Origin: Escherichia phage DCP80
Sequence record: PQ671644.1
DNA: 64,000 bases
Direction: 5' to 3' (one strand)
Shown here: piece by piece, positions 1 to 64,000 of the stretch
Layout of the letters: every line of letters starts with the position of its first letter
Position numbering within the stretch: the stretch's first letter is position 1
Position numbers and translations under genes: made by a program
Notes under the pieces: model-generated
The model's input: the letters and a program-made list of their open reading frames with translations, nothing else
Databases searched by the model: none
Told to the model about the DNA's origin: nothing

Positions 1-1255
1 AGATGTTCATTGCCACTAACTTCTCTGCATAATCGCCATATATTTCACTCGCCTGGAGTTCCTCAATCAACTTCTTACGAGGTTTCCCCTGGATAACAAC
101 CTTACCGTCAATCACTTCTTTAATAAAGAAGACTTTTGCCCGGGCCAGTTTAAATGCTGCTTCAGTTTCTTTAATCTTACTGTCAATTCGCACTTGAACA
201 TAAGTCTTACGGACATCAACGAAATCGCGAATCAGGTCAAGCGTGTTGGTGTATTCAGCCAGCTTGCCTTTGTGATTAAGCACTGTTAAGTTTTGGGAGA
301 GCTTCTCAATCAGACCAAAGTCTTTCATGATTTTCTCATGATTTTCTTCTTCAGTACCATCCAGCTTGTATTCTTTGCGGAATTTAATCTTAAACCCAAA
401 ACCATGCTCGCCGCAGTTATCTTTCCAGGTGATAAAACCTTTCTCTTCCAGCGGGTCCAGGATTTTACTTGTATACTTTTCTAGGTTCCATTGGACCGGG
501 ATTTCAGTAATTTCCATTTGGGTCCTGGAAGTCATTTTGTACGTGCCATGAAGCTCATACTTACCAGGCTCTTCCAGCTCAACCACTTCACCACGGAATT
601 CTGGATATTTTACTTTCGGCGCAACCGGCTCACGACCTTCCACGATAGCTTTAACAGCTTCCTTGACGTCCTGGAACGAATGAGGAAGAATATCAGTAGC
701 GAAGCCAACAGCAATCCCAGAAGTGGCGTTAAGTAATACAGTAGGAATAACAGGAAGATAAAAAGCAGGAGGCTTATGTTCTTCATCAGGATGGACCGGA
801 GCATATTCTGTATCCTTAAACAAGTTATAAAAGTTCTTTGAAACCCGTGCGAATACATAACGAGCTGATGATGCTTCTGGCACCATTCTGGAACCAAAGT
901 TGCCTTGTCCATCAAACATGGGGTATTCATTTTTATATGTTGCGACCAGACCAGAAGTTGCTTCTTCCGCTGATGCTTCACCATGGTGATAACCATAATC
1001 AGCTACGCCGCCGGCGATGGATGCAACTTTATGGAATTTATTCTTATCACCGCGCGCCAGGTCTAATGCTCTCGCCATAACAAATCTGTGAACTGGTTTA
1101 AAACCATCAATCATGTTTGGGATTGCGCGACCTTCCACAGTGTAGATAGCATATGATAATGCTTCCACATCAATAATGTCTTTTAGACTGCGTGGGTTAA
1201 GGGTCCCCATTGAATCACTGAACTGTTTGGACATCATACTTAAAACGTCAGACAT
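1..1255 (-). CDS. 52: DNA topoisomerase II medium subunit gp52 (GyrA-like), C-terminal part lost at window edge
   Basis: Minus-strand frame from ATG at 1255-1253 to position 1 with no stop; absent from ORF track because no stop lies in the window. Translation MSDVLSMMSKQFSD...AIPNMIDGFKPVHRFV...IAGGVADYGYHHGE...YAPVHPDEEHKPPAFYLP matches T4 gp52 as recalled. Confidence 0.85.
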   Translation of the reverse strand, partial: MSDVLSMMSKQFSDSMGTLNPRSLKDIIDVEALSYAIYTVEGRAIPNMIDGFKPVHRFVMARALDLARGDKNKFHKVASIAGGVADYGYHHGEASAEEATSGLVATYKNEYPMFDGQGNFGSRMVPEASSARYVFARVSKNFYNLFKDTEYAPVHPDEEHKPPAFYLPVIPTVLLNATSGIAVGFATDILPHSFQDVKEAVKAIVEGREPVAPKVKYPEFRGEVVELEEPGKYELHGTYKMTSRTQMEITEIPVQWNLEKYTSKILDPLEEKGFITWKDNCGEHGFGFKIKFRKEYKLDGTEEENHEKIMKDFGLIEKLSQNLTVLNHKGKLAEYTNTLDLIRDFVDVRKTYVQVRIDSKIKETEAAFKLARAKVFFIKEVIDGKVVIQGKPRKKLIEELQASEIYGDYAEKLVAMNI

Positions 1256-1396
1256 ATATCACCTTACCAGATTAACGAATGTACTGCCATTATAGCATCA
1301 GAAATAAAAAGCACAACCTGCACTAATGCAAATACAACTCCATAATATAGCGCTACCAATAAGGCAGCAAGGGCTAACGAGTAGCCCAGGATTTTC

Positions 1397-1579
1397 TTAA
1401 TCATTTTTAATCATCTTAAGTAAACCGACAAAAGTAGAAAGAATCCAGCCAATAAACAGAAAACTTAAGAATAGCGGACCAGGGGTCCAGACTCCTAAAA
1501 AGAAGCAGACTGAACAAACCACGGCAATAATAAGTTCGATAAAAGCCAGAATAATCATATTTTCCTCAAGGGCGTCCAA
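1397..1579 (-). CDS. small hydrophobic membrane protein
   Basis: 60-aa ORF, strongly hydrophobic, in the position of the small membrane ORFs upstream of gene 52 in T4-like phages. Confidence 0.35.
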
Positions 1580-1647
1580 AGACGCCAGTTAATTTAAGAT
1601 TATGGCGATGCCATTGCATCACATGTTCATTATGGAAATTACTCATA

Positions 1648-2097
1648 TTAATAACTCTGCAGAATGAATTTAAAGTTATCAGCAAGCATGCGATTCATTT
1701 CTGAAAGGGTCTGGCAATCAGAACTATGTGAGCGAGTGAACGCCATCGCAATTTGACCTTTACCATAACCAGTTGTCAGGGGTTTCATTTTAGAAACTGG
1801 AACAAACAGGACTTCATAGATAACACCATTGTTCGCCATTGTGCGCGACAGTTGCGAACGCTGTTTGCGGATGTGACTTAATACAGTGTCAAACCCTTGT
1901 TGTGAACGTTGGTTACCAACGTAAAAACGTGCAGCAACAATACGTGATTCGCCTTCACCCTTAACTACAAAATAAAAACCTGGTTGAGTGATAGCTTCTT
2001 TAGTTGGACGCCCTGCAACATAATTACCATTATGGATATAAGCAACAGTGGTAGCGCCAGCATTCAGTACGTCACGACGGGTCATGTAAGTATTCAT
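1648..2097 (-). CDS. ndd: nucleoid disruption protein Ndd
   Basis: 149 aa; PGFYFVV...[14 protein letters not shown]...[11 protein letters not shown]...[20 protein letters not shown]...[12 protein letters not shown] closely matches recalled T4 Ndd; synteny between rIIB region and gene 52. Confidence 0.7.
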
Positions 2098-2140
2098 ATT
2101 AATTTCCTCAGTAAGTTAAAGTTTTGTGCTCCAGTGGGGT

Positions 2141-2170
2141 CATTATACTCTGACCCCAAGAGTATGTACA
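2141..2170 (-). promoter_or_regulatory. early-type promoter with stem-loop around the -10 box
   Basis: Minus-strand TGTACA, 17-nt spacer, TATAAT; GGGTCA/TGACCC inverted repeat flanks the -10 box; lies upstream of ndd. Confidence 0.4.
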
Positions 2171-2515
2171 CTATTTTTGAAGTTGTTCTAAAATAAATCC
2201 GCTGGTGTAAAGGCTTGCATTATACAGGCGGTCAAGAGACAACGAATCCAATCCATAAGCTTCGCGAATTGCATTGATAGCACTCTCATAACTTGTATAA
2301 TAAACATCGCGATAATCGCGGTCCATAGTCATGCGGAACTTAATAAATTTGTAGAAACCAGTTTCAGGGTCCTGATAGAATGCAAATTCTGCAGACATCA
2401 AATTTTTAAGGTTAACAGCTTTTGTACCACCTGAATAACTTAAATCAAATGCTTCTGATACGCTAATCTGTTTAAAGAACATAATGTTGCGATTACCAAA
2501 AAATACTTTAGACAT
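2171..2515 (-). CDS. hypothetical protein
   Basis: 114-aa ORF, same strand and tight spacing as neighbours. Confidence 0.5.
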   Translation of the reverse strand: MSKVFFGNRNIMFFKQISVSEAFDLSYSGGTKAVNLKNLMSAEFAFYQDPETGFYKFIKFRMTMDRDYRDVYYTSYESAINAIREAYGLDSLSLDRLYNASLYTSGFILEQLQK

Positions 2516-2530
2516 AATATTTTCCTCAGC

Positions 2531-2776
2531 TTATTCAGGGTCTACTGCGCCATCCCACAAGTCAACTTCTTCTGATGATTCCATCAGTTCATCAACTGTG
2601 AAGCACTCAGTATTATTTTCAATTGCAAAACGCTTCTGATAAAAAGGATAATCCAAACAGTTTTCAGTGCGCACTGGACGCTCGCTGTTATCCATTAAAG
2701 GCGAAATGCGAATCAGTTGTTGACCATTACCCAGGACAAATTTTTCACCAACTGCAACGTCTTTAAAAAGTTTCAT
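2531..2776 (-). CDS. hypothetical protein
   Basis: 81-aa ORF with ATGA stop/start overlap to upstream ORF. Confidence 0.45.
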   Translation of the reverse strand: MKLFKDVAVGEKFVLGNGQQLIRISPLMDNSERPVRTENCLDYPFYQKRFAIENNTECFTVDELMESSEEVDLWDGAVDPE

Positions 2777-2979
2777 TGCTTAGCTCCATTCCAAATTACA
2801 TCAACAACAGACTTCAAACCATTATCCTGGATTTGTGTGAATACTTCAGCAGCAATCCAGACCTGGAAACCAATCATTGCAATGGCACCAATGAAAATCA
2901 GGATAATCATTGCCACAATAAACTTGAACATAAAGTCAAAGCGACGATTGGATTTCTGAAAGTGTGAATTGTAATTCAT
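2773..2979 (-). CDS. small membrane protein
   Basis: Likely start MNYNSHF at 2979 preceded by GAGGA; hydrophobic core; homolog in second copy at 17644-17790. Confidence 0.45.
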   Translation of the reverse strand: MNYNSHFQKSNRRFDFMFKFIVAMIILIFIGAIAMIGFQVWIAAEVFTQIQDNGLKSVVDVIWNGAKQ

Positions 2980-3251
2980 AATATTATCCTCAAAAGAAAT
3001 AGTTAAAGTAAACACGTACATGGTCAATCATAAAAATAATTGGGAAAATGCTCAGGACAACAAACAATACAAACATGTTCCAAATGGCTTTAAGTAACTT
3101 TTTCATAATCATCTCCAGTAGTTGATAGGTTCATTATACTACAACCACCGGAGATGTACACTCTTTTATGCAAGTTTCATTAATAATAAACTAAAACAAA
3201 CGCAAATTACTGGAATACACAACATCCAGATAAGACACCAGGTTTTGCTGC

Positions 3252-3518
3252 TCAAAATATCACCTCTTTTATTTCAATCAGACCCCTGTGCAATGCGGTG
3301 CGAAGGTCATAAAGAATATCTATGCCATCAACATTATCCAGTTTTCCATCAATAAGCTTTTTTAAATCATGCTTTGATGCAACTAGCGGGCGAAGAAATT
3401 TACATTCAGAAAGAGACAATTCTGTAGTAATATCATCACCATCACCTGACGCATCATACATGGCAGCAACAACCATACCTGTAACTTTGTGCTTGGCGTA
3501 ATATAATTTAATATCCAT
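3252..3518 (-). CDS. hypothetical protein, YYxKHKVTG family
   Basis: 88 aa from MDIKLYYAKHKVTG with GGAAAACAGA RBS; track ORF extends upstream in frame; homolog in second copy at 16949-17215. Confidence 0.5.
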   Translation of the reverse strand: MDIKLYYAKHKVTGMVVAAMYDASGDGDDITTELSLSECKFLRPLVASKHDLKKLIDGKLDNVDGIDILYDLRTALHRGLIEIKEVIF

Positions 3519-3528
3519 TCTGTTTTCC

Positions 3529-3684
3529 TCACGCATAACGATTGTATGTATTTTTACGACAAGCGTAAAATTGACGCTCAGTAACTGCAAAACTTTTTCC
3601 GCGTTGTTGCATTAATTTAAAAAATTCAGTAATATCGCCATTAACTTCAAGGTATAAAGTCATTGCATATTGAGCAGGTTTCAT
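3529..3684 (-). CDS. small hypothetical protein (copy-1-specific)
   Basis: 51-aa ORF MKPAQYAMTLYLEVNGD... translated by eye; below track threshold; the second copy carries a different gene here. Confidence 0.3.
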   Translation of the reverse strand: MKPAQYAMTLYLEVNGDITEFFKLMQQRGKSFAVTERQFYACRKNTYNRYA

Positions 3685-3704
3685 TTTATTCTCCAGTCTG
3701 TTTG

Positions 3705-3760
3705 GTAACTCAGTATGGAATCATTATGCACTGACTCCATACTGATGTACACTACTTTTT
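3705..3760 (-). promoter_or_regulatory. early promoter / stem-loop cassette (PeSL-like)
   Basis: Minus strand aaaaGTAGTGTACA, 17 nt, CATAATG, with CAGTATGGA/TCCATACTG inverted repeat flanking the -10; repeated elsewhere in the window. Confidence 0.45.
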
Positions 3761-3762
3761 AA

Positions 3763-4038
3763 TTAATTGTGCATTTGTTCTTTAACTTCTTTATATGCGC
3801 CAACTGCATTCACGACCCCAGTAAAATCTGCAGTCCCACGATAGAGATAGAAAGCAATTTCAGTCAGGTGGTAGACTTCAAATTCTGAAAGATAAACGAT
3901 AACGTCATAATATGCAACTTGACCCTGGACTTCGTTGAATGCCACATCAAAAATTTCATGGGTTGGAAAATTGATGTTGTTGTTTTTGAGTGCTTGGATA
4001 AGAATTTGTTTGATGTTGTGAGTAGTAACGTGTTCCAT
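3763..4038 (-). CDS. hypothetical protein
   Basis: Probable start MEHVTTHN at 4038 with AAGGA RBS; track ORF 3763-4128 extends into upstream gene. Confidence 0.45.
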   Translation of the reverse strand: MEHVTTHNIKQILIQALKNNNINFPTHEIFDVAFNEVQGQVAYYDVIVYLSEFEVYHLTEIAFYLYRGTADFTGVVNAVGAYKEVKEQMHN

Positions 4039-4085
4039 GATAATGTCCTCATTTGTTGGTATGAGGACATTATTACACGGTTGGT

Positions 4086-4679
4086 TCAGCTTGTAAACCG
4101 GTGATAGGGAAATTTTTCTTCTGAACAAGAACGGAGGTACCAGCCATCCCCTTGTGACTTCTGCACAAGACCAGACTCAGGAACGAAAGCACCAGGCCCA
4201 GCAAGGAATTTTGGTTTAAATCTATAACCTTTGAGAGTCTCTTTTACATCGAGCATAATCATAAGGTCAGCAAGCTTGTGCTGCATAAAAGGACCAAGAT
4301 TAATCCCGTAACCATGCGGATAATCGCCCTGGTGGCCAGTGTGTACGGATATCCATTTGGAACCAGACTGGTGGGTCTTGACTTCGATTCTTACCCCTTC
4401 CTTCGAAACTACATCAAATGCAAAGGAATAAGGATTATCGTAATCTTCGTCGCCGCCACATAAAAAACCAGAAGTCCATTTAGCAATAGCTTGTTCAGCC
4501 ATTGTAGCAACCATGCATCTTTGCATGACTTGCTCACGGTCCTGACCTGGGTCTTTACGCAATGAATACCGGGTAGTGTCTACAATCTTCTGCAGGGATT
4601 CGGGGTTTAAGTCTTCCTTTGTATAAAGAAAGGAGGGCATCTTTTTCAGATGCTCCCAGGTTTTACTCTTCTGAATCAT
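4086..4679 (-). CDS. hypothetical protein (197 aa) in the denB/ndd-region position
   Basis: Long ORF, same-strand synteny; identity with a named T4 protein not established. Confidence 0.55.
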   Translation of the reverse strand: MIQKSKTWEHLKKMPSFLYTKEDLNPESLQKIVDTTRYSLRKDPGQDREQVMQRCMVATMAEQAIAKWTSGFLCGGDEDYDNPYSFAFDVVSKEGVRIEVKTHQSGSKWISVHTGHQGDYPHGYGINLGPFMQHKLADLMIMLDVKETLKGYRFKPKFLAGPGAFVPESGLVQKSQGDGWYLRSCSEEKFPYHRFTS

Positions 4680-4932
4680 TTACGACCTCATCGATACCGA
4701 CGATTCCACGGATGTGAAGCTCACCATAATACAAACGGTCATTAGCATCAAATGTATCAGAATCCGGGTCAGGGAATTCCCCAACAACTACTTCATCACA
4801 TTCCAACCAACCATAGTGAACATCACCTTCATGCTTGATGAGCTTACCGCAGTAAACTATTCCTGCATAATGATGACCCCGGAGATTTGAAACTTTGATG
4901 TCACGGTCTGACACATTGAAATGCTTAATCAT
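4663..4932 (-). CDS. hypothetical protein
   Basis: 89-aa ORF, overlapping stop/start with neighbours. Confidence 0.5.
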   Translation of the reverse strand: MIKHFNVSDRDIKVSNLRGHHYAGIVYCGKLIKHEGDVHYGWLECDEVVVGEFPDPDSDTFDANDRLYYGELHIRGIVGIDEVVNDSEE

Positions 4933-4935
4933 AAT

Positions 4936-5133
4936 TTATTCACCAAAATAAGAGATACGAGTTGCCAGTACATGAGCATAAGCGCCCATCGCGTCTAACT
5001 GTGCAATCAAAAGACCTTGTTGACGAGCATCGAGAGTTTCAAAAACACCGCCCTTAATAAATTCTTCAAGAGCATTGATTTTCAAAACCAGCTGGTCATG
5101 TTCTTCAACTACACGTGCTTGGAAACCTAACAT
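4936..5133 (-). CDS. hypothetical protein
   Basis: 65-aa ORF with GAGG RBS; homolog in second copy at 15231-15440. Confidence 0.5.
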   Translation of the reverse strand: MLGFQARVVEEHDQLVLKINALEEFIKGGVFETLDARQQGLLIAQLDAMGAYAHVLATRISYFGE

Positions 5134-5146
5134 AAAGCCTCATTAG

Positions 5147-5160
5147 GGGCCGAAGCCCCG
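5147..5160 (-). promoter_or_regulatory. C(UUCG)G tetraloop RNA hairpin downstream of rIIB
   Basis: GGGGC-TTCG-GCCCC on the coding strand; no U-run, so a structural or processing element rather than a clear terminator. Confidence 0.4.
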
Positions 5161-5166
5161 ATTAAT

Positions 5167-6141
5167 TTAGAATTGTTCAGTTACATCATCAAGGACCAGG
5201 TAACCACAGACCCTCATCTTACTATCACCATAATCCACCGGGATACTTACAACATCACGCGGGTGAACTTTACAGGATACGATGCGTCCATCACCATGAC
5301 CAAAACCACTTCCAATATAACCTTTAGAGCAAACATGCAACCCAGTTGAACAAGTTTGTTCGTCATTATCGTTCACACGAGAGCGCGGCATTTTAACATA
5401 TTGACCAGGGCTGTTGTCGAATGTATTTGAGTGACAATCTTTGTAAGTTGCACGAACCATTTTCCATGCGATGAAATGACCGTCTTCGGTGATTTCGATA
5501 TCGTTCGCAACCAGGAAGTCAAACAAACGCTGTACGGCTTTCTCACTCGGGTTCTCAAGGAGATTCTCAAGGAACGGCAGATAGAATTCAAAGTCTTCGC
5601 CATTTTGCATTGAATCAATGATACGAGTAACCAGGCCAGAGCGTAGTTCAATTCCCTGATAGAACAGACTACCACCTTCAATACGCACATCGCCTTTCAC
5701 ATATTTTTGTACTGCAGCTTTGATTGAGATAAACTCGATAGCATCATCAAAACGAGATTCAATCAATGCCTGAATAATATCATTAAAGTGTTTATGGTCT
5801 TTTGTGGCGTTCCAGACTGTGCGACCTTCAGTGATGGAAACGAATTTGCTTGATGCGTTCCATACGATTTCTGGGCGGCTACCGCCGATTGTATCTTCAA
5901 CGACCGGAACTTCAACCATTACTGTCACCGGAGCATTAATCGCCACACCAACAGCTGCTTTCAGTGATGCAGAAATGGTTTTAGATAATTTTGATTCTTT
6001 ATCATTTTTCAAAACACGGCGAATGGTGTCAACCGATACACCGAAATTATCTGCTAGTTCCTGTTGGGTATAATTACCAGTTTTATAAAGAGAAACTACC
6101 TGGTTTTGGTCAAATTTGGATAAAGCTTTAATATTAAACAT
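5167..6141 (-). CDS. rIIB: rIIB protein
   Basis: 324 aa; GNYTQQELA...VSVDTIRRVLKN...DVRIEGGSLFYQGIELRSGLV...FYLPFLENLLENPS...LFDFLVANDIEITEDG...QYVKMPRSRVNDNDEQTCSTGLHVCSKGYIGSGFGHGDGRIVSCKVHPRDVVSIPVDY matches recalled T4 rIIB; immediately downstream of rIIA. Confidence 0.85.
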   Translation of the reverse strand: MFNIKALSKFDQNQVVSLYKTGNYTQQELADNFGVSVDTIRRVLKNDKESKLSKTISASLKAAVGVAINAPVTVMVEVPVVEDTIGGSRPEIVWNASSKFVSITEGRTVWNATKDHKHFNDIIQALIESRFDDAIEFISIKAAVQKYVKGDVRIEGGSLFYQGIELRSGLVTRIIDSMQNGEDFEFYLPFLENLLENPSEKAVQRLFDFLVANDIEITEDGHFIAWKMVRATYKDCHSNTFDNSPGQYVKMPRSRVNDNDEQTCSTGLHVCSKGYIGSGFGHGDGRIVSCKVHPRDVVSIPVDYGDSKMRVCGYLVLDDVTEQF

Positions 6142-6142
6142 A

Positions 6143-8377
6143 TTATTCCTTATTGGCCGCTTCCACGGCCTTCATGATTTGAGCAACGTTCTGTACTTGT
6201 TCAGTTGACATAGCGTTACGGTTATATAAAAAGTGTGAAACAATCGGGTGATTCTTTTCAAATTCAAAAACCATTTTATCGCTTGTTACCGAAGCGTTTT
6301 TGGTCAGGTCGTCATAAATCTTATTACAAAGGACCAGCGTTTCCTGCATGGTCTTATCAACCGTTCCACTGTTATATGCGTTATAAGCAAAGAACTTATT
6401 GAACTGCATTAGTTCGGCATAGTCAGTATTCACATCTTTCTGAACATCTTTTGCATAAAAATACTTGAACATAAAATTCAGTTCTGCATATTCAGACAGG
6501 ATAGGAATATAATAACGCGAACGGCTTGAAGCGGCAATGTACTGGTCTGCATCAACCGCATCAATCAATTCCACATAACGATTGACTGCAGCTTCAATCA
6601 GACAATCGCACTGCGCCAGCTTGGTAACCTTTTTCTGAAGCTGTGGACGAATAACACAGAATTCATTGATTTCCAACAGATTCGCCAGTTTGCACAATGT
6701 CTGGGTCCCGAAGGTCGTGGTGCCATATTCTTGATTCAACGGGGAAATGCTACTGCGGTTAATGAATACAGCATAACCATCGATTTCCTCTGCATCAGCT
6801 GCACATGTAAATTCTTCAACAGACTGCCAGCGACCATTGGTTTTAGTCCAACGAATCAATGATGGAGTCTTTGACTTAATGCGCGCTTTCGGGTCAGCAA
6901 CCGGAATCCAGTCTTTTACAAGGGCAGTCAGTTCAGACGTACGATAGATATTAACCGTATCGCCTTCAAATCGTTCCTGGAGTTGAACCATCAACCGTGT
7001 CTGAATTTCGCTGGTCGGGTCAACAAACAGTAAACTACTACCCTGACGAGTCGGGACTTTACCAGATGCAATAAGCTTTTTAGCTTTTGCGCTGGTATCA
7101 TACAACATTGAACTGATACCACGAATCATCGCAATTCGCCCTTTAACATCGTCAATAACAATGTTCAAGGTATCATTCTGAATACCAAACATGCTCGTCA
7201 GACTTGCCGTGTTCGAGCTTGAGCTTGAGTTGCGCAGACGTTTCAGACGAGTGTCACGATAGATATCATAGACAACCCCGGCATTAATAAGGTCTTTGTC
7301 CAGCTCGAACATTTCGTACATCTGGTTAAAGGTCAATTGTGATTTCGTAAATTTCGTTTCAGCATTACGAGCTTTCAGAAAATTACGAGCTTCATAATTC
7401 AGATTCTGCAATTCGCGATATGTATGGCGAAGACATTCTGATTCCTGCCATTTCTTACAATCGTCTTCCATGACTTTCTTATCAAGGGCTTCAATACGTT
7501 CAACGATATTTGCGACCGTACGTTTGTCCAGTGATAACGCTTCGCGAGAAGGTGCAATATCCAACGAACCCATCGGGAACTTAATAAAGACAACATCATT
7601 TTTGGCAGTCATCCAGGTTTTCTTGGTGTAACCATCACCAATCGGATAAACAATTCCGCCATAAATTGCATAAAGTCCATAACGTTCTGGACTGCTATAA
7701 TTAATACGCGCTGGAGCATAGTAATCATCAAATTCCGGGAAGTATTCAATTTCGCCAGCGCCTTGCACTTCAGCCAGCCCAGCAAATGGACGCATGATAT
7801 ACGCAATCTCGTAGCGGAACTTACCAAAATCATTACTATCAACCGGGACAACAACTTCAATCCCTGTGCGGTCACCAGGTTTCATTGGTTCACTAAAGGT
7901 TGGCTTAATCTGTGGACCATCGCCGTCCATATAAGCGACATATCCATTAACTTGACCATCATGATATGAAATCAGGCTAAACGTCTCGGTATAACTGAAC
8001 GGAGATTTAGAACCCAGACCAAAGCCACCAATAAAATCGTTGGATTCGGCCTTGGATGATGCAAAGAAACTGTTATACAGACCTGGAGTATTTTCATCAC
8101 CACGAATCTGGAAATCACTCATACCCGGACCAAAGTCACGACATACAAAACGTGGGTCCAGTTCACCAGGAGCTTGCACAATGAATTTATCCTGACATCC
8201 ATTGAGCATATGAGCATCAATCATATTGGTAATCAGCTCACGAACAACCGCGCGCACCTTGTTTGTATAAAGGTCGCTGGTCAGAATCTTAAACACCTTT
8301 GGAGATGCCTGGATTGTGAATGCTGATGCCTTGGCACCATTACCAAGGATTGTTTCCTTTTCAGTTTCTAAAATCAT
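6143..8377 (-). CDS. rIIA: rIIA protein
   Basis: 744 aa; N-terminus ETEKETILGNG...SPKVFKILTSDLYTNKVRAVVRELITNMIDAH...DPRFVCRDFGPGMSDF...FIGGFGLGSKSPFSYT matches recalled T4 rIIA. Confidence 0.9.
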   Translation of the reverse strand: MILETEKETILGNGAKASAFTIQASPKVFKILTSDLYTNKVRAVVRELITNMIDAHMLNGCQDKFIVQAPGELDPRFVCRDFGPGMSDFQIRGDENTPGLYNSFFASSKAESNDFIGGFGLGSKSPFSYTETFSLISYHDGQVNGYVAYMDGDGPQIKPTFSEPMKPGDRTGIEVVVPVDSNDFGKFRYEIAYIMRPFAGLAEVQGAGEIEYFPEFDDYYAPARINYSSPERYGLYAIYGGIVYPIGDGYTKKTWMTAKNDVVFIKFPMGSLDIAPSREALSLDKRTVANIVERIEALDKKVMEDDCKKWQESECLRHTYRELQNLNYEARNFLKARNAETKFTKSQLTFNQMYEMFELDKDLINAGVVYDIYRDTRLKRLRNSSSSSNTASLTSMFGIQNDTLNIVIDDVKGRIAMIRGISSMLYDTSAKAKKLIASGKVPTRQGSSLLFVDPTSEIQTRLMVQLQERFEGDTVNIYRTSELTALVKDWIPVADPKARIKSKTPSLIRWTKTNGRWQSVEEFTCAADAEEIDGYAVFINRSSISPLNQEYGTTTFGTQTLCKLANLLEINEFCVIRPQLQKKVTKLAQCDCLIEAAVNRYVELIDAVDADQYIAASSRSRYYIPILSEYAELNFMFKYFYAKDVQKDVNTDYAELMQFNKFFAYNAYNSGTVDKTMQETLVLCNKIYDDLTKNASVTSDKMVFEFEKNHPIVSHFLYNRNAMSTEQVQNVAQIMKAVEAANKE

Positions 8378-8384
8378 GTTTTTC

Positions 8385-57040: not shown

Positions 57041-57056
57041 GCGGAAAGGGGGTGTT

Positions 57057-57224: not shown

Positions 57225-57226
57225 TG

Positions 57227-57243
57227 GTCCTTCGGGGCCATTG
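57227..57243 (+). promoter_or_regulatory. UUCG tetraloop hairpin upstream of gene 61
   Basis: TGGTCC-TTCG-GGGCCA (one G-U pair), no U-run, 12 nt before the gene 61 RBS. Confidence 0.35.
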
Positions 57244-57256
57244 AAATGAGGAAACT

Positions 57257-58285
57257 ATGTCATATATTGATAAAGAATTTGCAGTCAGAGCTTTATCGTA
57301 TCAACCACGTTATAGAGAAGTCACCGGGAGCACATTTAAAGCAAACTGCAGATGTAAAGTTTGTGGCGACTCCCAGAAAGATTCACATAAAGCCAGATTC
57401 TGGGCGTATACTAATCCGGCTGATGGCGCGGTTTACGTGAAATGTTTTAACTGTGACTACTCCACGCATATAAGCAAATACATAAAAGAGTTTGAGCCGG
57501 ATTTGCACCGGGAATATATGGTTGAGAAGTACAAGGAGAACGCCTTCGGGCGACAACGCACTGAAGTTGTCGAAACTCCGAAAGAACCAGAAAAAACTCC
57601 GGTTATCGAACAGCTTGCTTTTTGTGAAAGACTCGATACTTTACCAGAAGCACATCCGATAGTTAAGTATGTAAAAAGTCGATGTATTCCAAGCAATGTT
57701 TGGAACCGGTTATGGTTTACAAACCAATGGCCCGCATTAGTTAACTCCGTCAATCCTGGGACGTATAAGAATGAAACGAATGAACCACGCTTGGTTATTC
57801 CTATCTTCAACGGCAAAAAAGAAATCGAATCTTTCCAAGGACGAGCTCTTCGCAAAGATGCACCACAAAAATATATCACAATCAAAGCTCACCCAGAAGC
57901 TTCCAAAGTCTATGGCGTAGACAAGATTGATGAGCGTAAACGCGTATGGGTAATGGAAGGTCCAATTGATAGTTTGTTTATCCCTAACAGCATTGCGATA
58001 ACTGGTGGCACATTGTCATTGGAAGCAGTTCCTTATGCTGAAACCAGAGTATGGGTAATGGACAACGAGCCAAGACATCCGGATACGATTAAACGTATGA
58101 AGAAGCTCGTTGAAGCTGGCGAAGCTGTTATGTTCTGGGACAATGCACCATGGCATACGAAAGACATAAATGAGATGGTTAAATCAGAAGGGGCAACCCC
58201 TGAACAAATCGAATCATATATGGCCGATAACGTTGCTCAAGGATTGATGGCGAGAATGCGACTTTCGAAGTACGCAAAAGTTTAG
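57257..58285 (+). CDS. 61: DNA primase gp61
   Basis: 342 aa; zinc ribbon C..C...C..C, ...IKEFEPDL.REY..., ...EPRLVIPI.N......SFQGRAL.KDAPQKYITI.A.PEA.K.YGV......V.V.EGPIDSLFI.N.IAITGG.L.LE.VP......VWV.DNEPRHPDTIKRM.KLV.AGE.VMFWD..PW..KD.N.M...EGATPEQI..YM..N.AQGLMA.MRLSKYAK match recalled T4 gp61. Confidence 0.9.
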   Translation: MSYIDKEFAVRALSYQPRYREVTGSTFKANCRCKVCGDSQKDSHKARFWAYTNPADGAVYVKCFNCDYSTHISKYIKEFEPDLHREYMVEKYKENAFGRQRTEVVETPKEPEKTPVIEQLAFCERLDTLPEAHPIVKYVKSRCIPSNVWNRLWFTNQWPALVNSVNPGTYKNETNEPRLVIPIFNGKKEIESFQGRALRKDAPQKYITIKAHPEASKVYGVDKIDERKRVWVMEGPIDSLFIPNSIAITGGTLSLEAVPYAETRVWVMDNEPRHPDTIKRMKKLVEAGEAVMFWDNAPWHTKDINEMVKSEGATPEQIESYMADNVAQGLMARMRLSKYAKV

Positions 58286-58393
58286 GAAGGGATTCCGGTA
58301 AAGTAACCGATGATGGAATGAATATGTTCTATTGTGACCTGGGGTAAGTGCACCCCTTGTGTTGCAGCGATAGGCACAACCAGTAAGTTCCAC

Positions 58394-58591
58394 CTATATA
58401 AGGCCGATTAATGCTAGTGAAACATCTACAACTGATTCGAGCGCGACGACTGGCAATATAACACCATGTGCCAATGCAATAGGGGCAACAATGAAATTCC
58501 AGAGTAGAACAAAACAGAGTATCGAAAGGACCAGAATCGTTCGCTTACGACTGCCTTTGATGGCTTGAATTAGACTAGATAGTTTGAGCAT
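58394..58591 (-). CDS. antisense small hydrophobic protein
   Basis: 65-aa ORF on the opposite strand to all neighbours, strong AGGAGG RBS 7 nt upstream, two predicted hydrophobic segments. Confidence 0.35.
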   Translation of the reverse strand: MLKLSSLIQAIKGSRKRTILVLSILCFVLLWNFIVAPIALAHGVILPVVALESVVDVSLALIGLI

Positions 58592-58675
58592 ACATCCTCC
58601 TTTCTTGTATTTATGCTTTAAACCAATATGATATAATTAACATACAAACAATATGAATTGATAAGGAAAAATATA

Positions 58676-59194
58676 ATGGCTCATTTTAACGAGTGTTCTC
58701 AACTGATTGCTGGTGTTGATAAAGCGCAAGATGCGTATAATGATGTCCTAAAAGGCAATGATGACCCTCTGCAGATTATGCTTGATATGCAGAAATCTTT
58801 GCAGGTTCGTCTGGCTACAGAAAAACCAGAATATAACGCACATCCAGATGAATTGGCAACCGCAGGCGATGTTGTTGCATGGCTTCGTAACCAGAAAGAT
58901 TATGTCGACGACGAATTCCGTGAACTTCTGACTTCGCTCGGTGGCATGTCTAATGGTGAGAAAGCCGCATCCAGTTGCTGGAAGCCGTGGAAAGCGCAAC
59001 ATGCTGAATATCGTAATCGTCGTATTGATGAACTGTCTCCTGAAGACCAGCTCGAAATTAAATTCGAAATGATTGATATTCTGCACTTCGTTCTGAATAT
59101 GTTTCAAGGTCTGGGTCTTTCTGCTGAAGAAATCTTTAAACTGTATTACTTGAAAAATGCCGAGAACTTTGCTCGCCAAGACCGAGGTTATTAA
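58676..59194 (+). CDS. 56: dCTP pyrophosphatase gp56
   Basis: MAHFNEC..LI.GVDKAQ..Y.D.L......DPLQ.MLDMQ..LQ.RLA......HPD.L.TAGDVV.W.R.QKD..DDEFRELLTSLG.MS.GEK.AS..WK.WKA........RIDE.SPEDQLEIKFE..DI.HFVLNMF.GLG..AEEIFKLYYLKN.ENFARQDRGY matches recalled T4 gp56; track ORF starts at upstream TTG. Confidence 0.85.
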   Translation: MAHFNECSQLIAGVDKAQDAYNDVLKGNDDPLQIMLDMQKSLQVRLATEKPEYNAHPDELATAGDVVAWLRNQKDYVDDEFRELLTSLGGMSNGEKAASSCWKPWKAQHAEYRNRRIDELSPEDQLEIKFEMIDILHFVLNMFQGLGLSAEEIFKLYYLKNAENFARQDRGY

Positions 59195-59475
59195 TGGCTC
59201 GTTTAAATAAACGTCAACTTAAGAAAGCTCGTAAGAAGCATATTAATGCTATAATTGAAAACGCTAATGTTGAAATCTTTGTAGAACTCTTAGCCAATCA
59301 ACTAAAAAATTTATCTAAACAAGAAATTGATATGAATACTGAAAATGCTAAAAATGTAATCGAAACTCATAATGTTTTTGCTCAAGCTACAGCCGAATAC
59401 ATTGCCAATCCTACTGCTGAAAATCTAGCTAAAATGACTGAAGCCAATAAAGCAGTCCAAGCCGCCAAATTGTAA
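59194..59475 (+). CDS. hypothetical protein
   Basis: 93-aa ORF, ATGA overlap with gene 56 stop. Confidence 0.45.
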   Translation: MARLNKRQLKKARKKHINAIIENANVEIFVELLANQLKNLSKQEIDMNTENAKNVIETHNVFAQATAEYIANPTAENLAKMTEANKAVQAAKL

Positions 59476-59476
59476 G

Positions 59477-59484
59477 TTATAAAT
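59477..59484 (+). promoter_or_regulatory. late promoter TATAAATA upstream of soc
   Basis: Exact TATAAATA about 33 nt upstream of the soc ATG. Confidence 0.55.
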
Positions 59485-59516
59485 ACACCTGTAATTAAAC
59501 AACAAAGGAGTTTATT

Positions 59517-59750
59517 ATGGGTGGTTTCGTTAATATCAAAACCTTCACGCATCCAGCTGGTGAAGGTAAAGAAGTTAAAGGCGTTGAAGTATCAGTTCCG
59601 TTTGAAATCTATTCGAACGAGCACCGTATTGCTGATGCGCACTATCAGACTTTCCCTTCGGCCGTTGCAGCATATACTACTGTAGTGACTGATGCAGCCG
59701 ATTGGCGAACTAAGAACGCGGCAATGTTTACGCCTACCCCAGTAGTTTAA
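59517..59750 (+). CDS. soc: small outer capsid protein Soc
   Basis: 77 aa; GFVNIKTF......GKE..VPFE.YSNEHRIADAHYQTFPS..AAY.TV matches recalled T4 Soc. Confidence 0.75.
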   Translation: MGGFVNIKTFTHPAGEGKEVKGVEVSVPFEIYSNEHRIADAHYQTFPSAVAAYTTVVTDAADWRTKNAAMFTPTPVV

Positions 59751-59755
59751 TTATA

Positions 59756-59780
59756 GGGAACCTTCGGGTTCCCTTTTTTG
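59756..59780 (+). terminator. rho-independent terminator with UUCG tetraloop after soc
   Basis: GGGAACC-TTCG-GGTTCCC followed by TTTTTTGCTTTT. Confidence 0.65.
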
Positions 59781-59827
59781 CTTTTAATAGAGATGGTATA
59801 ATTATTTCAACTACAGAGGAGAATACT

Positions 59828-60025
59828 ATGTTAAACCGTTGGATTAAACCAAATAAAACTTTAGATGAAGTTATTGCCCATGATGTGCATTTTAAGTATG
59901 GTCTGGGTGTGTTTGACGAGGTTGTCGTGCACTCGTTCATGATGCACGATGATGATTCTTTAGAATTCAATATTGAAATCCGTTATGATGATGGTCAAGT
60001 TGAATTTAAACGAGGTTTCCTATGA
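59828..60025 (+). CDS. hypothetical protein
   Basis: 65-aa ORF with GAGGAG RBS. Confidence 0.45.
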   Translation: MLNRWIKPNKTLDEVIAHDVHFKYGLGVFDEVVVHSFMMHDDDSLEFNIEIRYDDGQVEFKRGFL

Positions 60026-60381
60026 TTAGTTGGCTCAAGAATTTATTCAAGACTAAACCTGGTGAAGGGGTGGTTCCTGTTAGCCTGCCAGATGTTAAAC
60101 TAAGAGAATATGTTTACATGGGCGATGGTATGATGGAAGAAGTTCGTCGCCGCCCAGAAAAAGCCGGTAATGTCGGACCAGGCGCATTGCCATTGAATTC
60201 GAAAAAGTTAAAAGAGCATCTGGATTCAAGACGTTCTACAAGCCATGTCGATACTACACCGCATATTGATATGACTCCGATTGTGGTTACTGCGGCCGCT
60301 GTCAGTTCGTGGACTGGTGATTCGTCTTATTCCTCCTATGATTCAGGAAGCTGCGATTCATCTTCCAGCTCGTGTGATTAA
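60022..60381 (+). CDS. hypothetical protein with Ser/Cys-rich C-terminal tail
   Basis: 119-aa ORF; tail DSSYSSYDSGSCDSSSSSCD. Confidence 0.45.
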   Translation: MISWLKNLFKTKPGEGVVPVSLPDVKLREYVYMGDGMMEEVRRRPEKAGNVGPGALPLNSKKLKEHLDSRRSTSHVDTTPHIDMTPIVVTAAAVSSWTGDSSYSSYDSGSCDSSSSSCD

Positions 60382-60576
60382 ATGAGAATTACAAGTTGGC
60401 TTAAAGATTGGTTGGTTACCCCGGGGATTGATGATTCCTGGGTGGCCAGAGCCGAGGAAGAAATGCAGCGCGAAGCTGAAGAATGGGCCGCCGCAAGCGT
60501 CAAAGATATGCAGGAAAAGAAGACCGAACGAGCTGTGCTTAAACTGATGCGTGATATCTACGGAGATAAATCATGA
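60382..60576 (+). CDS. hypothetical protein
   Basis: 64-aa ORF. Confidence 0.4.
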
Positions 60577-60722
60577 CACAAGAAGAAGCTGAACGTCAGG
60601 CAAAAGAAGCACTGGATTTGCTTTTGAAAATTGGCAGTAAAATGATGGAAGAAAATGAAAAGTACATCAAGGAAAATAAAGTTCCTGATGGTCCATTAGT
60701 TGGTAAGAGGAAAACATTATGA
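60573..60722 (+). CDS. small hypothetical protein
   Basis: 49-aa ORF translated by eye, ATGA overlaps on both sides. Confidence 0.3.
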
Positions 60723-61207
60723 AAGTATATGAATTAGAATTCTATGTCCGTGATTCTGCTGGGCAAACACGACCTTACGATGCAACAGCCTGTCTTATCT
60801 TTGCATATAATGGCATGGATTCGGTTACTGAGTTGGAAACAAAATTAATGAACCTGACGATGCCAGAAAATGTCATGATGAAGGTATTTCATAACAAAAA
60901 CGTTAATGTGGCTGAAGGGTGTCCGTTTACTGTTTCCGAAGCTCTACACATTAAAGGCTATCGTCACCCGGACCCTTATGCAGAAGGTACTGCGGATATC
61001 TTCTATAAAGATACCGATAGAATTTCAGAAGAACGCCTTAAAGGTCGCACATATCTGATTTCCACTACCGACGACCTTGCTGAAGTTGAACGTCAGATTT
61101 GGAAGCACTTTGATATCGGTCTGCGCTTTACTTTAACAGAAGAAGCTATTCAAGATACTAAAATGCGTGCTCGTATGTATGGTTACGGTCCGATTGGTGG
61201 TTACTAA
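60719..61207 (+). CDS. hypothetical protein
   Basis: 162-aa ORF. Confidence 0.5.
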
Positions 61208-61383
61208 TGGATTTATTTGAACTTTTTGAAGAGCCTAAAGCTCCCACAGAAGCCCGTGTGGACCTAGTTGACGAACTTGATGCGATTATACAGAAGCACG
61301 GTTTTAGTCTCCCATTGGAAGTTCTGCGCGACCTGGCCTCATATTACGACGACCCACCTCCATGGGCACCATGGAAACAGTAG
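61207..61383 (+). CDS. small hypothetical protein
   Basis: 58-aa [16 protein letters not shown]..., overlaps previous stop. Confidence 0.35.
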   Translation: MDLFELFEEPKAPTEARVDLVDELDAIIQKHGFSLPLEVLRDLASYYDDPPPWAPWKQ

Positions 61384-61504
61384 TTTACTTACTCCCCTCC
61401 TAATGACATAATGACCTTTCTTACAACAGAGAGGTCATTATGAACATCATCAAATCTGATACCGAACCCAACCAGTTAAAATTTAGTGAAATGGAGATAG
61501 CTTC

Positions 61505-61540
61505 ANNNNNNNNNNNNNNNNNNNNNNNNNNNNNNNNNNN
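61505..61540. other. assembly gap (N-run)
   Basis: 36 Ns. Confidence 0.95.
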
Positions 61541-61756
61541 ACTGAAGGCACAAGCCCCGGTGGCCAAGGTTCAAGTCAATCAGCAGGCCCTTCTAATGGT
61601 TCTGCACATGCATCACATTCTCAAGGTATAGAGAATATTAAATCCAGCTATGTAAATACCACTCACGGTAAAGCACAGGAAGCATGGGCGAAAGGTAGAG
61701 TAGTTACTGATTCTGTTTTCTGTCATATGCCAAAATATGTTGGTTGTAAGAAATAA
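61541..61756 (+). CDS. 3' end of unidentified gene (Gly/Ser-rich segment), 5' part lost in gap
   Basis: Open frame from gap to TAA at 61754-61756, followed by a terminator. Confidence 0.35.
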   Translation, partial: TEGTSPGGQGSSQSAGPSNGSAHASHSQGIENIKSSYVNTTHGKAQEAWAKGRVVTDSVFCHMPKYVGCKK

Positions 61757-61760
61757 TCTA

Positions 61761-61786
61761 AGGACCCTTCGGGGTCCTTTTTTATT
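61761..61786 (+). terminator. rho-independent terminator with UUCG tetraloop
   Basis: GGACCC-TTCG-GGGTCC followed by TTTTTTATTTT. Confidence 0.65.
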
Positions 61787-61797
61787 TTAAAAAGTAG

Positions 61798-61850
61798 TGT
61801 ACAACCAGATGGTCATAAGACATAATGATTCCATACTGAGTTACCAAATA
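61798..61850 (+). promoter_or_regulatory. early promoter / stem-loop cassette (PeSL-like)
   Basis: TGTACA 61798-61803, 17-nt spacer, CATAAT 61821-61826, then conserved GATTCCATACTGAGTTACCAA leader. Confidence 0.45.
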
Positions 61851-61867
61851 AACAAACGGAGAATAAA

Positions 61868-62074
61868 ATGTTAGAATTAATCAAAGCTGCTGGTGAAAAA
61901 GGTCTGATGGTTAACACTCGTGACCCTGAGCAACGTCAAGCATTTGGTGAGTTAAAAGCCAAAGGTCTGGTTAAAGCATCCCTTGGTATTGGTAATGCTT
62001 TGCGTGTGACTTTGACCCCTGCAGGTAAAGCAATGTTCTTCCCTAAACCATTACCAAAACGTCGTCGCAAGTGA
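61868..62074 (+). CDS. hypothetical small basic protein
   Basis: 68-aa ORF, basic C-terminus KRRRK, GGAGAATAAAATG RBS context. Confidence 0.45.
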   Translation: MLELIKAAGEKGLMVNTRDPEQRQAFGELKAKGLVKASLGIGNALRVTLTPAGKAMFFPKPLPKRRRK

Positions 62075-62080
62075 GGAATT

Positions 62081-62383
62081 ATGAAGAAGTATGAACTTGA
62101 CATGATTGAGGCATGTCTGAAATCTGCTGACCATTTTAAGTTGAAAATGCACAAGTTAAGAGGAATGGTCAAAACTCCAGAAGAGAAGAAGCGATATGCT
62201 CTTAAGGAGAAATGTAAAGCTCTTATCATGATGGATAAGCTGCAAATGGTCGCCGCAGAAGCTCACAGGACACGTAAAGCCGAGGCCCTTGGTGTTTATA
62301 TGGCAGAGCAGCTTCATCGTGCACAGCAAGCCGTTAAGAGCGTCTGGTTCAGCGGTGAAAATACTGAAAGAACTTTTAATTAA
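62081..62383 (+). CDS. hypothetical protein
   Basis: 100-aa ORF. Confidence 0.45.
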   Translation: MKKYELDMIEACLKSADHFKLKMHKLRGMVKTPEEKKRYALKEKCKALIMMDKLQMVAAEAHRTRKAEALGVYMAEQLHRAQQAVKSVWFSGENTERTFN

Positions 62384-62386
62384 ATG

Positions 62387-62440
62387 TGTACATAGTATGG
62401 GGATAGACGTATAATGTTCCCATACTGAGTTACCAAATAC
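62387..62440 (+). promoter_or_regulatory. early promoter / stem-loop cassette (PeSL-like)
   Basis: TGTACA 62387-62392, 17-nt spacer, TATAAT 62410-62415; CATAGTATGGGGA pairs with TTCCCATACTGAG. Confidence 0.45.
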
Positions 62441-62451
62441 TGGAGAATAAA

Positions 62452-62976
62452 ATGGACGCAAAATCAATCTTTAATCTGATTAATTACAATAATGGTAATT
62501 TTAAATCAGAAGCGCAAAGCAAGTTCTTTAATGATGTTGCTTGTGCAGGTGAGATTACAGTATCAGGTGGTCAGACTTATAAAAACGCCTGGAACTGGAT
62601 TGTGACTGTTGATTCAGTTGGTATTGTTGATGTGTATAAAAACACCAACAAAAACCGCTCTTTGTTCTGGTCAAGAGAGACTAATGCAGAATATCAAGCG
62701 ACAAGAGCGAAGAAAAATATGCCTACTGAATCTGATGTACAAAACATCAAATCAGATATCCAATATTATGATGGTCTGATTGCTGAACAACAAGCGGTGC
62801 TTGATAAGTTCAATGAAATCAAGGCGTGTAAAGAGATTCCTGAATTCATGAGGGAATCAGTTAATGAACAATACAATCTCACTTCAGAGCGTATTGAAAC
62901 CTATACCAAACAAAGAGCAGAGCGCCAGGTACTCCTTCAGAAGTTTGAAGAGCGTTTAAAGACGGTTCTCGCATAA
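62452..62976 (+). CDS. hypothetical protein
   Basis: 174-aa ORF. Confidence 0.5.
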   Translation: MDAKSIFNLINYNNGNFKSEAQSKFFNDVACAGEITVSGGQTYKNAWNWIVTVDSVGIVDVYKNTNKNRSLFWSRETNAEYQATRAKKNMPTESDVQNIKSDIQYYDGLIAEQQAVLDKFNEIKACKEIPEFMRESVNEQYNLTSERIETYTKQRAERQVLLQKFEERLKTVLA

Positions 62977-63039
62977 ACGCTTTATACCAAGGATGGTATA
63001 ATGGTTCTGACCTTTGATTAATCTATTGAGGAAATTATT

Positions 63040-63882
63040 ATGTCACAAGCAATTAATGAAATTCGTTCTGAAGTTAAAAAAGTTATTAAATTTGGTCGTA
63101 TTCCAAGCACTAAAGATGTGGTTGAAAAGGTTCTATATATGATGTGGGACAAGTTCAATGTTTGTACTGTTAAAAATGACTTCACTAAAATCTTTGACAA
63201 GACTAAAGGTTCGTTTACATTAGAAGACCGAGTCATGAAAACTCTTCGTAAAACAGGTATGTTGTCTCGTGCTAATGCCAAAATTATTCTTAAAAAATAT
63301 AACAAAGGCTACGACCTTTATGGTCGTGCGATTAACACCATGACGTTTGATGAAGTGGTTAAAGACCTTCATGCCAACCAACGACGTTTACTAGCACTAG
63401 GTGCTCGCCTTGCAAAAGGTCAAGATAAACAAATGACCTTTAAAACCAATAATTCTTTAGATTATAAAGTATTCAATGTTATTAAAGGTCAAAATGAAGG
63501 CGAATACAGTATTTCTTCTTTTAGTGGTTGTCAATATGACAACTGGAAGTTCCATCTCCGATTGGCCTTGTCTGAATTAGAACAGCACGGTGTTCTTAGT
63601 TTTGGTGATGCCGAAACTGGAGCAGGTCAGCGTATTAAACTTTATAAAATTAAAGACCTGGCTGAAGACTCTTCAGAACAAGCTCCTAAAATGGAACCTG
63701 TTCCAGTGCGAAGCAATGAAAAATATTCAGAGCAAATTGAGCTTTTCACTAAACAGATTGAAGAGCTTAACATCACCATCCAGCAGCAAGATGATGAAAT
63801 TTTCCGCCTGTCAGGACTGAACGGCGCGGCAAAAGCTGAACGTCAGAAACTGATGGACGTTATTAAATTGCTTAAGGCTTAA
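63040..63882 (+). CDS. hypothetical protein (280 aa)
   Basis: Long ORF, predicted coiled-coil C-terminus. Confidence 0.5.
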   Translation: MSQAINEIRSEVKKVIKFGRIPSTKDVVEKVLYMMWDKFNVCTVKNDFTKIFDKTKGSFTLEDRVMKTLRKTGMLSRANAKIILKKYNKGYDLYGRAINTMTFDEVVKDLHANQRRLLALGARLAKGQDKQMTFKTNNSLDYKVFNVIKGQNEGEYSISSFSGCQYDNWKFHLRLALSELEQHGVLSFGDAETGAGQRIKLYKIKDLAEDSSEQAPKMEPVPVRSNEKYSEQIELFTKQIEELNITIQQQDDEIFRLSGLNGAAKAERQKLMDVIKLLKA

Positions 63883-63883
63883 T

Positions 63884-64000
63884 ATGACCATTTTGATTAT
63901 CAGTATTATTTTTGGTTATCTTGTGACGGGTTTTATTACTACCCTGTTGCTTCACAAGTTTGATAGTCCCTACGAAAGTGGGGACGAGTATGATGCGGTG
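63884..64000 (+). CDS. hydrophobic protein, 3' end beyond window
   Basis: MTILIISIIFGYLVTGFITTLLL...; ATG overlaps previous stop (TAATATG). Confidence 0.35.
   Translation, partial: MTILIISIIFGYLVTGFITTLLLHKFDSPYESGDEYDAV

Follow-up and report, generated by a model that had tools for sequence, protein, structure and literature searches.

Layout of the window

Does a single phage genome carry three multi-gene loci in two diverged copies each, partly in inverted orientation? The question is raised by a stretch of 64,000 nucleotides from Escherichia phage DCP80 (record PQ671644.1), analysed here over its full length and referred to as the window, in which the rIIA-rIIB region, the genes 47-46-45-44-62 and the genes uvsX-40-41-dmd-sp each occur twice. 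An earlier note had taken the window for a gap-joined scaffold of two closely related T4-like haplotypes. Our analysis leaves little doubt that it is a slice of a length-sorted, multi-contig draft containing two co-assembled strains of the genus Gaprivervirus, and that its duplications and inversions are artefacts.

The window contains 316 N in total, split over ten runs at 8994-9040 (47 N), 17791-17800 (10 N), 24743-24760 (18 N), 30887-30940 (54 N), 36511-36520 (10 N), 41760-41800 (41 N), 47031-47080 (50 N), 52286-52300 (15 N), 57005-57040 (36 N) and 61506-61540 (35 N). They bound eleven blocks (B1 to B11), and both the counts and the coordinates are exactly those of the earlier note. Study of the block lengths (8993, 8750, 6942, 6126, 5570, 5239, 5230, 5205, 4704, 4465 and 2460 nt) revealed that they decrease strictly from B1 to B11, an order with a chance probability of ~3e-7. 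B1 and B11 are cut by the edges of the window; for each of the nine complete blocks, B2 to B10, the N-run that follows has the minimum length, not below 10 N, needed to bring block plus pad to a multiple of 60 (9/9). All blocks after B1 begin in one common 60-base register, with a chance probability of ~1e-16. The start of B1 lies 20 nt off this register and within a truncated gene 52, which indicates that contig B1 continues to the left of the window.

We conclude that the N-runs are formatting pads between independent contigs, not scaffold gaps, and the term gap-joined scaffold should be replaced by padded list of contigs, since the runs follow a formatting rule. Given the length sorting and the padding rule, the order of the blocks, their orientation and the size of the gaps carry no information on adjacency, strand or distance. 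It is therefore meaningless to describe the two rII regions as lying head to head across the 8994-9040 gap, because this gap is a formatting pad. Another possibility, that the N-runs are masked stretches within a continuous sequence, was rejected: mapping on a reference genome jumps at every run, and the run lengths obey the padding rule. The pads also disturb gene finding. Mechanical calling of open reading frames (ORFs), which reads through them as X, gives chimeric ORFs at 51490-52383, 53252-57241, 17644-17811 and 17656-17823; one such pad-spanning ORF, of 1329 amino acids (aa), fuses gp37 of B9 to sequence of B10.

Identity of the phages and mapping of the blocks

A megablast search against phage genomes returned E. 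coli and Shigella myoviruses of ~170 kb at 93-99% identity. As mapping reference we used the complete genome of phage CJ20 (record MT533174; 169,884 bp, 40.4% GC), which is classified, together with SP18, in the Straboviridae, Tevenvirinae, genus Gaprivervirus; gene names were checked with the SP18 annotation and by tblastn with the CJ20 proteins. Within every block the sequence runs collinear with CJ20; B9 apart, identity is 94-98% over most of the block length, and the T4-type gene order of CJ20 and SP18 is kept inside the blocks. The blocks themselves fall on scattered CJ20 positions and on both strands; they are sorted by length regardless of genome position, so that their CJ20 positions are scrambled. 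This comparison with a reference T4-like genome, which the earlier note had suggested, bears out its remark that block order and orientation depart from T4 synteny, with the precision that the departure is between blocks: only their order and strand are arbitrary.

The window covers ~45 kb of a ~170-kb genome at 93-99% identity to CJ20, SP18 and P896, B9 being closer to the genus Dhakavirus. Genera of phages are in practice delimited by the International Committee on Taxonomy of Viruses (ICTV) at more than ~70% nucleotide identity over the full length. Very probably, the DNA sequenced held at least two strains of Gaprivervirus, that is, T4-like phages of E. coli and Shigella of ~170 kb and 40% GC. 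No database phage is identical to the blocks, the best match being 99.0% (B7 against SP18), and scans for exact matches to a 50-mer of B9 and a 70-mer of B4 gave no hit in viral_contigs, genome_contigs or metagenome_contigs. We take the phages to be new strains of a genus that is already known and well sampled, and their biological content is ordinary. What they share with its members (Shigella phage SP18 and Escherichia phages CJ20, P896, TH44 and 212) is 93-99% nucleotide identity, the gene order within blocks and a GC content of ~40%; what sets them apart is the Dhakavirus-like B9, the srd allele and several small ORFs that differ from CJ20.

Two peculiarities of the reference record deserve mention. 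Its annotation contains many overlapping or antisense 'hypothetical' coding sequences (CDSs), including at least one over-extended ORF that overlaps sp (e.g. CDS 10115-10687), and gene 44 is unannotated because it spans the ends of the record.

Duplicated loci and contig ends

Self-BLAST followed by MAFFT alignment confirmed that three loci are present twice. Region 2833-8993 of B1 matches 10925-17790 of B2 on the opposite strand, with 94.7% identity over aligned columns plus several indels; 18987-24365 of B3 matches the whole of B8 (47081-52285), again on the opposite strand, at 96.4%; and 24894-30121 of B4 matches the whole of B7 (41801-47030) on the same strand, at 96.75%. With alignments of 5-6 kb and E = 0, chance is no issue, and self-BLAST found no other similarity longer than ~90 nt within the window. 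The second copies amount to 17.3 kb, i.e. 27% of the non-N bases. The earlier note had the three pairs right, but the intervals are shorter than the whole blocks it gave in the case of B1 to B4; B7 and B8 fall entirely within B4 and B3, respectively. Its gene lists for two of the loci, 47-46-45-44-62 and uvsX-40-41-dmd-sp, are correct, with rpbA to be added between 46 and 45 (tblastn, SP18). For the third, described as 39-rIIA-rIIB, the rIIA-rIIB part is indeed shared, but gene 39 (9042-10790) occurs in B2 only: common to B1 and B2 are rIIA-rIIB-denB and small ORFs, and B1 instead continues in the opposite direction, to ndd and gene 52.

The way in which these copies end is informative. We scanned every block end for its longest exact match elsewhere in the window, and all six ends lying inside duplicated loci (6/6) match the partner contig for exactly 111 nt, the 112th base being the first mismatch. 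For the rII pair, the right end of B1 (8883-8993) is the reverse complement of B2 10925-11035, and the right end of B2 (17680-17790) that of B1 2833-2943. The left end of B7 (41801-41911) is identical to B4 24894-25004, with the first difference at 41912/25005, and its right end (46920-47030) to B4 30011-30121. Finally, the left end of B8 (47081-47191) is the reverse complement of B3 24255-24365 and its right end (52175-52285) that of B3 18987-19097. The remaining block ends do not have even a 12-mer in common with the rest of the window. Exact overlaps of 111 nt extending up to the first variant base are, as far as can be judged from the sequence, the signature of bubbles in a de Bruijn graph with an apparent k of about 111. 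Such strain bubbles belong to assemblies of mixed populations, as in metagenomes, unpurified phage lysates and phage cocktails, and the resemblance to them is close: alternative contigs ~96% identical, ends overlapping by k, shared sequence present once and a listing sorted by length. Nothing differs in kind, the concatenation with N pads to a 60-base register being specific to this record or window.

A short repeat was noticed near one of these ends. A direct repeat of 45 nt is found in B4 (24908-24952 and 25269-25313) and in B7 (41815-41859 and 42176-42220), where two neighbouring small ORFs downstream of sp each carry it at the 3′ end. The proteins of both ORFs end in DDQIFNAFMKR and have no significant similarity elsewhere along their length. 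One copy of the repeat is included in the left junction 111-mers of B7 and B4.

Divergence between the copies

Comparison of the 22 ORFs shared by the two copies revealed 528 substitutions in 4592 shared codons, distributed as 76, 48 and 404 over codon positions 1, 2 and 3 (chi-square p = 2e-97). Thus, 77% of the coding substitutions fall at third positions, and 105 amino-acid changes result. The per-gene ratio of nonsynonymous to synonymous substitution rates (dN/dS) ranges from 0 to 0.4; it is ~0.01-0.06 for gp41, gp46, gp47 and rIIA, and 0 for uvsX, gp40 and gp45. The compared ORFs are all open in both copies. The frame of gp44, for instance, is equally long in both, and the residues at its N and C termini agree. 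MAFFT alignment verified the scattered substitutions and in-frame indels reported in the earlier note: indels within genes are multiples of three, namely 3 nt in rIIB and twice 3 nt in a 144/146-aa ORF adjoining sp, and indels of any other length are confined to sequence beyond the compared ORFs, either intergenic or in the region of a replaced cassette. Presence or absence of whole genes, also reported there, was found by alignment and ORF comparison in the form of four cassettes that differ between copies.

An apparent pseudogene or frameshift in B7, in the ORF annotated in the style of CJ20 as 'hyp016', was considered and rejected; it stems from an over-long reference annotation overlapping sp, and the true 144/146-aa ORF is intact in both copies.

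The relatives of the copies differ as well. B4 is closest to P896 (98.4%) and B7 to SP18 (99.0%), to be compared with a mutual identity of 96.75%. B8 is 97.5% identical to P896 and 97.4% to SP18, and B3 is 97.2% identical to TH44, or 97.6% to CJ20 over 95% of the query, the mutual value for B3 and B8 being 96.4%. For the rII pair, B1 gives 96.7% with P896 and 97.5% with CJ20, the latter over 93% of the block only, and B2 leans towards phage 212. Wherever the duplicated interval of a branch was searched alone, the branch proved nearer to a database phage than to its partner. In addition, the 47-62 locus is found once per genome in every related complete genome listed. With their different nearest relatives and a 47-62 locus that is single-copy in the relatives listed, the copies behave as orthologues belonging to two phage lineages rather than as paralogues within one genome. 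The third-position bias, the intact ORFs and the different nearest relatives lead us to regard the differences between copies, as judged from the alignments, as real evolutionary divergence and not error.

Origin of the duplicated loci

The most economical account would be as follows. Two strains, differing by ~3-5% over the compared loci and by a few small gene cassettes, would have been assembled together by a de Bruijn-graph program with k of about 111, which would collapse identical stretches and split differing ones. One branch would then be carried into the flanks (B3 and B4, plus one flank each for B1, towards ndd and gene 52, and for B2, towards gene 39), and the other would be emitted as a separate contig bounded by the shared 111-mers (B7, B8 and the inner ends of B1 and B2). 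B1 and B2 would be the two branches of one bubble, each extended through one junction. Finally, the contigs were written out by decreasing length, with N (10 or more) filled in after each until the next multiple of 60 was reached. Concatenation and co-assembly together would produce the apparent direct and inverted duplications, the head-to-head layout and the broken T4 synteny. Co-assembly of two closely related T4-like variants, already proposed in the earlier note, is supported by the padding, the mapping, the 111-nt junctions, the third-position divergence and the differing relatives; its further claim that the duplications and inversions are false is upheld by the same padding, junctions and relatives. 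They are not real biological features and belong to no DNA molecule.

Could the duplications nevertheless be real? One oversized T4-like genome with diverged second copies, one pair forming an inverted repeat, would agree with the finding that no compared gene is disrupted in either copy and that purifying selection acts on both, as expected of functional paralogues; superficially, two multi-kilobase copies of a locus in one record also recall true segmental duplications or the terminal redundancy of T4. However, the window offers no linkage information, the Ns being pads between length-sorted contigs, so that linkage on one molecule is not shown; and the contig ends, with exact 111-nt overlaps up to the first variant base, have the form expected from graph bubbles. 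The single-copy state of the 47-62 locus in every related complete genome listed and the fact that every copy searched is more closely related to some other phage than to its presumed paralogue point the same way. At least 17 kb of extra DNA would, moreover, exceed the T4 headful capacity minus terminal redundancy, and a phage whose UvsX/46/47 recombination is very active would not stably maintain repeats of 5-6 kb at 96% identity. We therefore consider real duplications very improbable. An even less credible explanation is that a single genotype was sequenced and that the second copies come from sequencing errors, chimeric reads or terminal redundancy. T4-like genomes are terminally redundant and circularly permuted, and such genomes can confuse assemblers, but terminal redundancy gives identical copies of one locus, whereas here three loci, 3-5% diverged, are concerned and their ends are of the bubble type. 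Errors, for their part, would not place 77% of coding substitutions at third positions or keep the compared ORFs open, nor would they account for the gain or loss of entire ORFs that other phages have at these sites.

A sub-case of the co-assembly of two real strains is that these never shared an environment and were brought together by pooled libraries, multi-sample co-assembly, a cocktail or cross-contamination. Related Gaprivervirus phages have often been isolated, and serially, from faeces and wastewater (as read from record fields), and nothing in the sequence ties both variants to one sample. Nor does anything specific speak against it: the unsplit flanks of B1 to B4, present once only, would fit recent recombination of co-circulating strains, but they would fit simple conservation equally well. 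We hold this sub-case to be unlikely, though far less so than the two explanations above. About the opposite possibility we may only speculate, and with as much reserve: the variants may be a naturally co-replicating and recombining Gaprivervirus pair, in which the unsplit tracts would reflect recent recombination and the polymorphic cassettes (the HNH gene by rIIB and small ORFs near early-promoter elements) would be mobile and in the middle of their spread.

What is observed directly is the padding and sorting rule, the mapping of the blocks, the exact k-mer overlaps and a divergence shaped by selection. Several points weigh against the account by co-assembly of two strains or limit its reach. 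That both strains were in one library and that the flanks are collapsed is inferred, as is the identity of the assembler. The reading of each block as one contig is likewise drawn from the sequence alone. The nearest references do not separate the six branches cleanly into two genomes. Identical runs inside the branches reach 385 nt and are thus longer than k, so that the assembler must have threaded them with read or pair information and the phase within a branch could contain switch errors. As for the flanks of B1 to B4, which occur once in the window, either they are a collapsed consensus or their other version is on a contig that the window does not include. Each of B1 to B4 passes from a strain-specific branch into flanks found once and perhaps collapsed, and so may be a chimera of the two strains. 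Two variants are supported, as the earlier note had it, but what it called haplotypes cannot be phased from locus to locus by sequence alone.

An attempt to assign each of the six branches to one of two genomes through its closest database phage was rejected: the margins are 0.1-2% and the phages are mosaic.

Consequences for the record

The main value of these observations is as a quality control flag for the record. If it is read as one molecule, gene counts, calls of synteny and inversions, searches for repeats and ORF calls will all be wrong. The warning of the earlier note that treatment as one genome would overcount genes and create false inversions was justified, given the 17.3 kb of second copies, and chimeric ORFs spanning the pads were already in the ORF list. 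What we are dealing with is an ordinary mixed-strain draft assembly of low biological novelty. Differences between strains at the level of cassettes are of a kind already described for close pairs of T4-type phages: in near-identical pairs of the phi1/RB49 type, the differences lie in cassettes flanked by PeSLs (Arbiol et al. 2010, PMC2839356; Comeau et al. 2014, PMC4122927). The present variants are likewise ~95-97% identical and show insertion, deletion and replacement of small ORFs in hyperplastic regions; in contrast to those pairs, both genomes are known here only as fragments of a mixed assembly.

Gene content of the contigs

B1 (1-8993, minus strand) corresponds to CJ20 34722-25683 and carries 52 (partial), ndd, small ORFs, denB, rIIB, rIIA and a DUF7367 ORF. 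B2 (9041-17790, plus strand; CJ20 23820-31935) carries 39 (partial), the DUF7367 ORF, rIIA, rIIB, a putative HNH endonuclease gene, a sequestin-like ORF, denB and small ORFs. B3 (17801-24742, plus; CJ20 163548-169884 then 1-921) has small ORFs followed by 47, 46, rpbA, 45, 44 and a partial 62; its alternative branch, B8 (47081-52285, minus; CJ20 164751 through to 544), contains 47 (partial), 46, rpbA, 45, 44 and the start of 62. B4 (24761-30886, minus; CJ20 11196-5185) comprises uvsX, 40, 41, three small ORFs, dmd (placed via the SP18 annotation), sp and two small ORFs, and B7 (41801-47030, minus; CJ20 5837-11063), the alternative branch of B4, contains uvsX (partial), 40, 41, dmd and sp with their neighbours.

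Of the single-copy contigs, B5 (30941-36510, minus; CJ20 53355-47788, 96.4%) holds small ORFs, 32, 59, 33, dsbA, rnh and, on the opposite strand, the start of 34. B10 (57041-61505, plus; CJ20 11438-15919, 93.5%) encodes the 61 primase, the 56 dCTPase and soc, besides small ORFs and the start of a modA-like gene. B6 (36521-41759, minus; CJ20 21704-16461) includes a motB-family ORF, dexA, dda, a divergent srd allele and a partial modB-like gene. This srd-like anti-sigma gene (40250-40993, minus) encodes a protein with 49% identity to that of CJ20, the neighbours being at 98-100%. The protein matches phrog_1400 at E 2e-89, and its N-terminal part also matches PHROG families annotated as endonuclease and HNH endonuclease.

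B9 (52301-57004, minus), also single copy, carries the start of the holin gene t, the gp38 adhesin gene and a partial gp37 distal tail fibre gene. It matches CJ20 38150-41867 on the plus strand at only 67-76% identity, and the proteins of its tail-fibre module (gp38 and distal gp37) are only 41-75% identical to those of CJ20. The exact gp38 protein is not on record. At the DNA level, the nearest references of B9 belong to Dhakavirus, namely IME341 and IME08, with 90-92% identity over 76% of its length, and its GC content, 42.5%, is the highest among the blocks. Either tail fibres were swapped between genera or B9 is a sign of a third phage in the mixture.

B11 (61541-64000, plus; CJ20 150300-152547, 94.4%) consists of small early ORFs of a hyperplastic region, and its first 216 nt (61541-61757) have no match in CJ20. 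Next to ndd in B1, the ORF at 2174-2518 (minus; phrog_10053) has 56% protein identity to CJ20. Both departures are typical of variation in hyperplastic regions.

Variant-specific cassettes

Four small cassettes distinguish the copies. The largest is an ORF of 163 aa at 14747-15238 (plus), found in B2 only, the empty site in B1 lying at ~5133-5177 (gaps of 336 and 125 nt). Its product matches phrog_374, a family of HNH endonucleases, at E 8e-59 and has an AP2-like C-terminus (E 2e-4, below the Pfam cut-off); a Pfam search of the ORF gave no match to any HNH model. The ORF lies between rIIB and the sequestin-like ORF (PF21825) and overlaps each neighbour by 8 nt. In TH54, MN01 and six Logan contigs, the latter being independent public assemblies, this site is likewise occupied by the gene, which is absent from B1 and CJ20. 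The protein is otherwise on record only on phages or contigs 92-96% identical to B2. Among close relatives, the gene is therefore present or absent at one intergenic site, and we regard it as a candidate free-standing homing endonuclease gene, polymorphic within this mixture. That these other phages and public assemblies carry it at this very position also indicates that the cassette alleles were not invented by the assembler.

The other three cassettes are smaller. An 87-aa ORF of B2 (16689-16952, plus; phrog_2390) is replaced in B1, at the same site, by an unrelated ORF of 51 aa (3529-3684, minus). A Cys-rich ORF of 48 aa (17487-17633, plus) is specific to B2, B1 having a gap of 157 nt at ~2992. 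The last one, a DUF5487 ORF of 74 aa (20017-20241, plus), occurs in B3 only, between 47-proximal ORFs and 46, and is matched in B8 by a 209-nt gap at 51243. CJ20 has an empty HNH site, as B1, yet possesses the 87-aa and DUF5487 ORFs, as B2 and B3.

A conserved, dispersed element of ~85 nt was observed upstream of small early ORFs, at 61760-61880, 62360-62465 and 16600-16710 and, on the minus strand, at 3670-3780, 26960-27060, 43870-43970 and 32190-32300. It is made up of an A/T-rich stretch, a sigma-70-like TGTACA-N17-CATAAT and a conserved leader, TCCATACTGAGTTACCAAATA..GGAGAATAAAATG. The site of the exchange between the 87-aa ORF (B2) and the 51-aa ORF (B1) has a copy immediately upstream. 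The copies in B11 and B5 are directly preceded by a GC stem-loop and then a T-run. The element is similar to PeSLs, the terminator-promoter cassettes known from T4-type phages (PMC2839356, PMC4122927).

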